Source: a virus
DNA length: 64,000 bases
Strand: one strand, 5' to 3'
IMG/VR virus record: IMGVR_UViG_3300042888_001055
A program made the position numbers and the translations under genes. How positions within the stretch are numbered: position 1 is the stretch's first letter; each line of letters starts with the position of its first letter. Below the pieces are notes generated by a model. It did not search any database. It had not been told where the DNA came from and was given only the letters and a program-made list of their open reading frames with translations. Of the stretch, positions 61,879 through 62,927 are shown one piece after another.

Positions 61879-62703
61879 ATGAACAATAACCCATTAAAAC
61901 AATATTTTCGTAGACCTGCGATATATTTAAAATTACCCAGCGAGGGTAAATATTATCCAATAGACGCTATTGATTTACCTGATAACAAAGAACTTCCTGT
62001 ATATCCAATGACAGCTATAGATGAAATAACTAGCAAAACTCCAGACGCTCTATATAGCGGTGTGGCAATTTCTGAAATCATTAAAAGCTGTGTACCAAAT
62101 ATTAAAGATCCATGGTCTATCCCAACAATTGATTTGGATGCTATATTAATAGCTATCAGAGCGGCAACTAATGGAAATTTATTAGATGTTGAGTCAACAT
62201 GTCCTAGTTGTACTGAGTCTGCTTCATATAATGTTAATCTAATTGGATTACTATCAAAAATAGTAGTAGATGAATACAAAAATAACGTAGCTATTGATGA
62301 AATGTCCATTGCGTTCAAACCAATCACATATAAATCATATAATAAATTAAATTTGGCTCAGTTTGAATTAGAAAAAAATGTAAGAAAAATGAATGAGATT
62401 ACGTCTGATGAAGAAAGATTAAAATATTCAACAGAAATGATGAAACAATTAAATGATTTAACCATGCTTCTTGTGTCTGAATCAATTGACAATATTACTA
62501 CCCCGTCATTTGTTGTAAATGAAAAAGAATATATTCTTGATTTTTTACAGAATTGTGATAGGAACTCATTTGTAAAATTAAAAGAGCATACAATAAAATT
62601 ACGAGAAGATGCTCAATTAAAACCATTAGCAGTTAAATGCATTCACTGTGAACATGAGTATAACCAAACCATTGCGTTAAATGTATCTGATTTTTTCGAA
62701 TAA
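61879..62703 (+). CDS. T4 gp26-like baseplate hub assembly protein / putative tail assembly chaperone
   Basis: IYLKLPSEGKYY, PMTAIDEI, IDLDAILIAIRAAT, CPSC and CIHC pairs, terminal DFF; GGAG SD. Confidence 0.75.
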   Translation: MNNNPLKQYFRRPAIYLKLPSEGKYYPIDAIDLPDNKELPVYPMTAIDEITSKTPDALYSGVAISEIIKSCVPNIKDPWSIPTIDLDAILIAIRAATNGNLLDVESTCPSCTESASYNVNLIGLLSKIVVDEYKNNVAIDEMSIAFKPITYKSYNKLNLAQFELEKNVRKMNEITSDEERLKYSTEMMKQLNDLTMLLVSESIDNITTPSFVVNEKEYILDFLQNCDRNSFVKLKEHTIKLREDAQLKPLAVKCIHCEHEYNQTIALNVSDFFE

Positions 62704-62740
62704 GGCTTCTGTATCTGTCCGCTGAGGATATACAGAAGCT
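62691..62740 (+). promoter_or_regulatory. -1 programmed ribosomal frameshift signal
   Basis: In-phase slippery heptamer T TTT TTC (62691-62697), 7-nt spacer, perfect 10-bp stem GCTTCTGTAT (62705-62714) / ATACAGAAGC (62730-62739). Confidence 0.8.
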
Positions 62741-62927
62741 GATAGACGATATGGAAAAAGAAACGTTAATCATTAAAGAAAATGCTATAAGAATGGCTTG
62801 GCATATGCGTGGGGGTGTTACCTATGAAGATATATTAAACATGTGTACTACTGAACGTAATGTTATATCAAAATTAATGGAAGATAACTATGAAACTACT
62901 AAGAAATCAGGGCTTCCATTCTTCTAA
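62697..62927 (+). CDS. gp51-like small ORF in the -1 frame, probably made as a frameshift extension of 61879-62703
   Basis: Reads RIRLLYLSAEDIQKLIDDMEKETLIIKENAIRMAWHMRGGVTYEDILNMCTTERNVISKLMEDNYETTKKSGLPFF*. The first ATG (62751) has no SD. Missing from the ORF track. Confidence 0.75.
   Translation, partial: RIRLLYLSAEDIQKLIDDMEKETLIIKENAIRMAWHMRGGVTYEDILNMCTTERNVISKLMEDNYETTKKSGLPFF

Follow-up and report, generated by a model that had tools for sequence, protein, structure and literature searches.

Two reading frames overlap near the end of a 64,000-nucleotide viral sequence, IMG/VR record IMGVR_UViG_3300042888_001055 (referred to below as the window, meaning this whole stretch of DNA), and the question is whether they represent two genes or a single gene from which two proteins are made. 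The metagenomes in which the phage is found are from lakes and fresh water. The first frame is an open reading frame (ORF) for a 274-amino acid protein of the T4 gp26 type, and the second is a shorter ORF in the -1 frame directly behind it. An earlier note on this DNA had proposed that a programmed -1 frameshift fuses the gp26-like ORF to a gp51-like ORF, and that the frequently annotated pair of gp26 and a small gp51 is in fact one recoded gene. Comparative analysis makes recoding at this site, either by the ribosome or during transcription, highly probable. The more specific reading, in which one gene gives a 274-amino acid and a 349-amino acid protein through a ribosomal -1 slip on T_TTT_TTC, is in our judgement likely.

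The slip site and its conservation

The 274-amino acid ORF matches the Pfam family PF12322 (T4_baseplate) with an E-value of 2.8e-19 and 70.1 bits (cut-off 24.5), and positions 11-219 of the 219-position profile align to residues 21-274. Direct reading of the sequence gives GAT TTT TTC GAA TAA as its 3' end, in which the heptamer T_TTT_TTC lies in the X_XXY_YYZ phase on the codons of two C-terminal phenylalanines (Table 1). A TGA codon in the -1 frame is found directly 5' of the heptamer, and the -1 frame consequently opens exactly at the heptamer. The two frames can be joined by a shift only inside positions 62691-62703 (13 nt), which include the heptamer. Counted from 62691 the -1 frame has 78 codons and the number of new residues is 76, so that the predicted long form consists of residues 1-273 of the short form plus 76 residues (349 amino acids, junction ...SDFF/RIRLL). 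The in-phase heptamer ending the ORF, the -1 frame open for 76 codons and the lack of a Shine-Dalgarno sequence before its first ATG had all been described in the earlier note and were borne out; no AGGAGG-like motif is present 5-12 nt upstream of ATG 62751. In-phase X_XXY_YYZ heptamers make up 0.31% of codons in the ORFs of the window. Among the 76 stop-to-stop ORFs of at least 100 amino acids on both strands, this ORF alone combines a heptamer in its last 10 codons with a -1 frame of at least 60 codons.

The break lies within a homopolymer and might therefore represent a miscalled base, or a true frameshift mutation in what was a single 349-amino acid ORF, and the existence of two uninterrupted singleton proteins in the databases (described below) would agree with such an origin. 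The T run is, however, crossed without an indel by contigs of three DNA sequencing runs from different studies (2016, 2020 and 2024), one of which is possibly the window's own source, and this excludes a homopolymer sequencing error. Over 90 phage sequences that were assembled independently of one another show the same frame relation, as do finished genomes of cultured phages. The interpretation as an artefact or a decayed gene is already refuted for practical purposes.

A blastn search with the locus against GenBank phages identified no relative at the DNA level. At the protein level the relatives are jumbo myoviruses, namely Atu_ph07, Phosso, PA5oct, RaK2, 121Q, GAP32, CBB, XacN1, SCTP-2, RsoM2USA and others. 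The loci compared were those of 13 GenBank jumbo phages and 80 IMG/VR loci, the latter with 37-91% protein identity. Of these, 92 have a complete 3' end (all 13 from GenBank and 79 from IMG/VR), with a gp26 that is 24-91% identical to that of the window. All 92 have an in-phase T_TTT_TTY on an invariant Phe-Phe (T_TTT_TTT in three of them), although counts of this type overstate the number of independent observations because the loci are phylogenetically linked. In the window and the 13 GenBank jumbo phages the motif is found in 14 out of 14. The -1 frame is open for 73-91 codons in all 92 loci, and in 31 of 58 close relatives it begins exactly at the heptamer. S-PM2, P-SSM2, HTVC008M and KVP40 share both the heptamer and its phase.

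The conservation extends to positions at which the encoded protein leaves a choice of base. The sequence TTTTTTCG showed zero entropy across 58 distinct sequences. Among 73 unique loci, the codon preceding Phe-Phe ends in T in every case, with nine different residues encoded (background third-position T 0.36). The first Phe is encoded by TTT in 73/73 (background 0.68) and the second by TTC in 70/73 (background 0.32), the C of this TTC being the first base of a conserved arginine codon in the -1 frame. The zero-frame stop is located 3 to 33 nt past the heptamer across relatives, and this variable distance indicates that the position of the stop is not constrained.

The -1 frame extension and T4 gp51

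A tblastn search with the -1 translation gave matches to Atu_ph07 (4e-11), Phosso and the RaK2 group which started at residue 1 of the extension, and an FFRxxLL motif as well as later motifs are kept in the -1 frame. The entropy of the three codon positions over extension codons 4-20, which lie 5' of the first ATG in the window, was 1.02/0.63/1.41, compared to 1.01/0.57/1.34 in the upstream gp26 frame. Coding periodicity and conserved residues thus precede the ATG, indicating translation of the -1 frame from the slip site onwards. The ORF predicted by a gene caller would be the 58-amino acid one that starts at this ATG. If there were no recoding, this ORF would be a separate small gene, translated from its own start (ATG 62751) or through termination-reinitiation, and its product a separate subunit beside gp26. 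Such an arrangement agrees with GenBank, in which a separate small ORF is annotated in most relatives, including 'gp51' in S-PM2, P-SSM2 and KVP40. In the cyanophages and KVP40 an ATG is located just 2-4 codons past the slip site, which makes coupled reinitiation conceivable there. The first Met of the -1 frame, however, varies from residue 3 to residue 50 across relatives and is absent in PA5oct, arguing against a separate start. In many loci it lies inside a conserved WYMRGG motif, so that half of the domain would be lost, and residues and codon periodicity are conserved already 5' of the window ATG. ATG 62751 has no Shine-Dalgarno sequence, and the 58-amino acid ORF gave no Pfam match and no PHROG match. 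A separate gene also leaves the frozen synonymous sites of the heptamer unexplained, and in-frame fusions, including T4 gp51, all join at the same point. The earlier note had named variable frames, or a conserved Shine-Dalgarno sequence and ATG, in homologs as evidence against the frameshift; the phase was found to be constant and no start codon is conserved. We regard two independently translated genes as very unlikely, and the 58-amino acid ORF is most probably not a gene of its own.

A profile search for longer proteins identified two uninterrupted database proteins, P0002 (355 amino acids) and P0004 (352 amino acids), which join exactly at the slip site; both are singletons. The predicted fold of P0002 is one compact unit (predicted local distance difference test (pLDDT) 89.7, predicted template modelling (pTM) score 0.85) in which the extension forms a helical domain. 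AlphaFold2 (AF2) likewise predicted a helical domain for the window extension alone (pLDDT 84.8). No named Pfam or PHROGs family was found for the extension, which showed weak matches to PHROGs of unknown function only, and a Foldseek search of the extension alone against BFVD returned nothing significant. With conservation in every relative examined, a coding signature, no conserved start and two natural fusions, the proposal of a -1 fusion between the two ORFs is supported.

Both T4 proteins belong to the same family as the window ORF: PF12322 scores 215.6 bits for T4 gp26 and 177.5 bits for T4 gp51 (gp51 E-value 3.9e-52). In a wide alignment of the jumbo phages and T4 gp26, residues C108, C254, C257, F272 and F273 are invariant and C111 is nearly so, and in the clade of the window (35 sequences) all six are invariant. 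As a separate observation, P0004 lacks all four zinc-ribbon cysteines, suggesting that some lineages can do without the metal site, provided that this singleton is not a defective protein. T4 gp51 has about 48 extra C-terminal residues past PF12322, a region in which a second Pfam domain is precomputed for gp51 homologs. When the profile of the jumbo-phage extension was compared to the gp51 family, the top match was gp51 221-257 (P 3.5e-5, probability 72%), and the profile of the fused form was colinear with gp51 through to the gp51 end. Compared to the cyanophage/KVP40/T4 group, the extension profile gave a probability of 36% (P 3.7e-4). The gp51 family profile was needed to see the relationship, as hhalign of the extension profile with T4 gp51 as a lone sequence failed to find it (probability 3%, wrong region). 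These profile comparisons give moderate support for a relationship between the extension and the C-terminal domain of T4 gp51.

The relationship is more evident in other T4-like phages. The -1 ORFs of S-PM2, P-SSM2, HTVC008M and KVP40 are plainly gp51-like, and from the slip site on the P-SSM2 extension aligns to gp51 200-246 (E-value 2e-6). In GenBank the small ORFs of S-PM2, P-SSM2 and KVP40 are labelled 'gp51', and the KVP40 record notes a resemblance to 40 residues at the gp51 C-terminus. The designation of the second ORF as gp51-like therefore holds for the C-terminal match and has to be narrowed, as only the last ~50 residues of gp51 correspond to it; the rest of gp51 is a gp26 paralog (PF12322). 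The broader proposal, in which gp26 and a small gp51 as commonly annotated represent a single recoded gene, is supported as well: S-PM2, P-SSM2 and KVP40 share heptamer and phase, and their small ORFs owe the label gp51 to a resemblance to the C-terminus of T4 gp51.

In T4 the short gene 26 and the long gene 51 are indeed two separate PF12322 genes, and neither a slippery site nor a -1 ORF is present: the Phe-Phe of gp26 is kept, encoded by a non-slippery GAG TTC TTT, and gene 25 follows directly. All frameshift-bearing genomes tested contain a single PF12322 gene, namely RaK2, Atu_ph07, PA5oct, 121Q, a 100%-complete 348-kb relative, S-PM2, P-SSM2, HTVC008M and KVP40. T4 gp26 is a natural negative control for the slip site. 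The T4 literature lists the two proteins among the chaperones of hub assembly, gp51 being needed for assembly and absent from the particle (PMC3004832). They have been described as the tail assembly chaperones (TACs) of T4-like phages, designated TAC-N and TAC-NC (Vladimirov, Gautam and Davidson, Virology 2022;566:9-15, PMID 34826709). According to the account of that study in the PRFect paper (PMC10274946), the frameshift is replaced in some T4-like phages by a short gene together with a longer, fused one. The paper on phage Adele (PMC12846349) refers to poly-T slip signals as known in TAC-N genes of T4-like phages.

Ribosomal and transcriptional slippage

The comparisons show the signal and its conservation, protein-coding selection on the -1 frame from the slip site on, the relationship to gp26/gp51 and the contrast between one gene here and two in T4. 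We infer that the shift is made by ribosomes and not by the polymerase, and the same holds for its efficiency. In the proposed mechanism, for which a tandem -1 slip of two Phe-tRNAs is the simplest reading, the majority of ribosomes would stay in the zero frame, stop at 62701-62703 and yield the 274-amino acid gp26-type TAC-N. In a minority, the Phe-tRNAs on UUU in the P site and UUC in the A site of U_UUU_UUC would slip back by one base, after a pause that is probably caused by the hairpin 6-7 nt downstream and the nearby stop codon. The shifted ribosomes would read Arg-Ile-Arg-Leu-Leu and onward to 62927, giving a 349-amino acid TAC-NC whose additional 76-residue helical domain would be the equivalent of the C-terminal domain of T4 gp51. 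By analogy with the lambda G/GT paradigm and with T4 genetics (PMC3004832), the part common to both forms would hold the tape measure protein, here presumably the tape-measure-like protein encoded divergently, and the extra domain of the rare form would recruit another tail or hub component.

The outer stem of the hairpin (62705-62714 with 62730-62739) is a perfect 10 bp, or 11 bp when G62704-U62740 is included, and encloses an inner stem of 4 bp (62717-62720 with 62726-62729), in agreement with the stem and inner stem that had been noted seven nucleotides past the heptamer. The region 62685-62780 folds at -24.3 kcal/mol compared to -15.2 ± 2.8 kcal/mol for shuffled sequences, and none of 200 shuffles was as stable. 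For the 50 nt past the heptamer the value is -19.6 kcal/mol; the remaining 50-nt windows of this gene give -4.8 ± 2.3 kcal/mol, and none of them is as stable. Across 72 loci the downstream 50 nt have a mean of -12.3 kcal/mol, whereas windows from the respective gene average -5.8 kcal/mol (p 2e-12 in a Wilcoxon test), and in 51/72 they are among the most stable 10% of their own gene.

The long form could also be obtained when RNA polymerase stutters on the T run and inserts an extra U in a few percent of the transcripts, which are then read straight through into the extension. The T run is at least six long in every locus, and XacN1 and Xoo-sp13 have seven. The T that is fixed in front of Phe-Phe not only completes the heptamer but also makes the run longer, and a minor long form requires just a few percent of slippage. 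The title of the 2022 study by Vladimirov et al. points away from a translational mechanism. The constant X_XXY_YYZ phase does not discriminate between the two mechanisms, as the conserved Phe-Phe codons force this phase anyway. Most loci have exactly six T (70/73, then C), which is short for bacterial RNA polymerase, whose slippage is known from runs of about nine or more. In addition, stable structure is enriched 6-7 nt past the run, which is the position of a ribosomal stimulator and is untranscribed while the polymerase is on the run. Slippage by the polymerase is in our view improbable. As an observation apart, Ralstonia phage RsoM2USA (2568-2576) has nine T at the slip site and HTVC008M has eight, and because of these lengths the two phages would be the best candidates for polymerase over ribosomal slippage.

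Several results weigh against a ribosomal shift stimulated by the hairpin or against a role in tail assembly of the lambda type, in addition to the phylogenetic linkage of the loci and the T runs, six or longer throughout and up to eight (HTVC008M) and nine (RsoM2USA), mentioned above. RNA contigs cover positions 62722-62890 and not the slip site. No notable downstream structure was found in the group of RaK2, 121Q, GAP32 and Yen9-04. In the covariation analysis of the hairpin, 60% of cells pair compared to 58% in shuffles, 10 of 500 shuffles reaching 60%; the given structure beats slid controls and barely exceeds shuffles. RNAalifold returned no consensus for the hairpin, and the conserved outer stem overlaps conserved Leu-Leu and Lys-Leu codons. 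Of the alignment check suggested in the earlier note, the part concerning heptamer and -1 phase thus held in 92/92 loci, and the part concerning stem covariation was not convincing. We do not claim selection on pairing itself. The canonical order tail tube-TAC-tape measure is not found in the window: the recoded gene and the gene for the tape-measure-like protein diverge, and none of the genes in the window was recognised as a tail tube gene.

Gene neighbourhood and comparison with known systems

The coordinates of the locus and its divergent neighbour are listed in Table 1.

Table 1. Positions in the window of the two predicted forms, the putative recoding signals and the tape-measure-like neighbour
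Feature	Coordinates	Strand	Basis or remark
Short form, TAC-N, gp26-like, 274 amino acids	61879..62703 (including TAA)	+	Zero frame; ORF list, PF12322, PHROG 150 (baseplate hub)
-1 frame TGA directly 5' of the heptamer	62688..62690	+	-1 translation
Slippery heptamer T_TTT_TTC	62691..62697	+	X_XXY_YYZ phase, on invariant C-terminal Phe-Phe
-1 extension, TAC-C part, resembling gp51 C-terminus	62697..62927	+	76 codons, CGA (Arg) to TAA 62925-62927
Zero-frame stop TAA, one codon past the heptamer	62701..62703	+	Sequence
Candidate frameshift stimulator hairpin	62704..62740	+	6-7 nt past the heptamer; fold
58-amino acid ORF from first -1 frame ATG, as a gene caller would report it	62751..62927	+	ORF list
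Tape-measure-like protein, 945 amino acids, divergent; presumed chaperone client	58944..61781	-	Pfam Peptidase_M15_4, residues 790-849

The neighbours on the opposite strand encode the tape-measure-like protein, a T4-type portal, a prohead protease and the major head protein. In RaK2 the annotation of the homologous neighbour points to similarity with a tape measure protein, and a long divergent ORF is present at the same place in 28/28 sampled relatives. The tape-measure-like protein has an internal domain of the M15 D-Ala-D-Ala carboxypeptidase type with a Gly/Ser-rich stretch before it, and judged from these domains it is probably a tape measure that can also cut the cell wall. The genes of KVP40 are arranged as a tube-like gene, gp26, the small gp51 and a gene for a long (656-amino acid) hypothetical protein. 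By analogy this order would fit lambda V-G-T-H, provided that the 656-amino acid protein is assumed to be the tape measure.

Further observations concern other parts of the window. A homing-endonuclease-like ORF (52098-52886, minus strand; PHROG 655, 2.7e-36) immediately follows the gene for the major head protein, which is encoded on that strand too. Four consecutive ORFs of 309, 313, 313 and 306 amino acids occupy 47546-51399 on the minus strand; no named family was found for them, except for a glycine-rich domain in the first, and they may form a paralog array of structural proteins. The gene-free gap that follows the recoded gene (62928-63428) shows 91-97% DNA identity to relatives whose gp26 gene is only ~70% identical. 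No tRNA and no Rfam match was found in this gap. A consensus fold of nine sequences, obtained for the plus strand only, contains 96 pairs, 47 of which show compensatory changes, and the depth of metatranscriptome contigs peaks at 63063-63100. From its conservation and predicted fold the gap looks like a candidate large structured RNA of unknown class.

The window locus shares with the T4-like TACs the PF12322 common part, a gp51-type C-terminal extension, and a short and a long form with the same N-terminal part. For T4-like phages, too, a poly-T slip signal has been described where TAC-N ends (PMC12846349). The locus differs from T4 in being one gene with a heptamer, whereas T4 has two genes and no slippery site. 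In the RaK2/PA5oct/Atu_ph07-type jumbo phages, to which the window belongs, the extension is longer (76 versus about 50 residues) and has diverged. The long form is not annotated in any of the 13 GenBank jumbo-phage records opened, and in most of them, including RaK2, 121Q, PA5oct, Atu_ph07, XacN1 and SCTP-2, the downstream ORF appears as a separate, often truncated, hypothetical protein. The window locus is a well-supported new, unannotated example from the jumbo lineage of a principle already published in 2022.

We lean slightly towards the view that U_UUU_UUC and the hairpin form a true ribosomal signal which is ancestral for the whole PF12322 family, from the cyanophages and KVP40 to the 490-kb jumbo phages, the two genes of T4 representing a late duplication that made the slip dispensable. 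If this is true, the identification of T4-like TACs would extend to the RaK2/PA5oct/Atu_ph07 lineage, in which the gene is divergent from the tape measure and unannotated, and the mechanism would be settled as translation, whereas the title of the 2022 paper points in another direction. The difference between TTC TTT in T4 and TTT TTC elsewhere provides a clean natural control, and the cultured hosts of RaK2, PA5oct, KVP40 and S-PM2 make the question of ribosome or polymerase testable.

The use of a -1 shift on T_TTT_TTG has reportedly been found for the myovirus tail chaperone pair gpE and gpE+E' of phage P2 (work attributed to Christie et al. in J Bacteriol, 2002). We take the P2 system to be similar in its contractile tail, the nearly identical all-T heptamer and a shift that occurs shortly ahead of the stop codon ending the short form. 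The P2 protein is presumably much smaller and of an unrelated sequence family.

The conserved -1 frameshift of TAC genes is known from gpG/gpGT of lambda (Xu, Hendrix and Duda, Mol Cell 2004, PMID 15469818, as cited in PMC9024508 and PMC10274946). As in lambda, the second of two overlapping ORFs in the window is in the -1 frame relative to the first, which has a slippery heptamer at its end, and there is a predicted major short and minor long product that share their N-terminal part. The window protein matched no Pfam TAC family at E-values up to 0.1, Foldseek against the PDB gave nothing at E-values up to 0.001, and a wide VIA-align search returned generic helical-hairpin matches only (Z at most 8). 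Compared to lambda gpG, the window protein is about twice the size and carries a zinc-ribbon-like pair with four cysteines, and its heptamer is U_UUU_UUC instead of G_GGA_AAG. Unlike genes of the lambda G/GT type, it is not located between the tube and tape measure genes. The comparison would place T4 genes 26 and 51, whose products have long been regarded as factors for hub assembly of unknown mechanism, in the chaperone scheme of lambda G/GT, a single slipping gene and a pair of non-slipping genes being interchangeable solutions.

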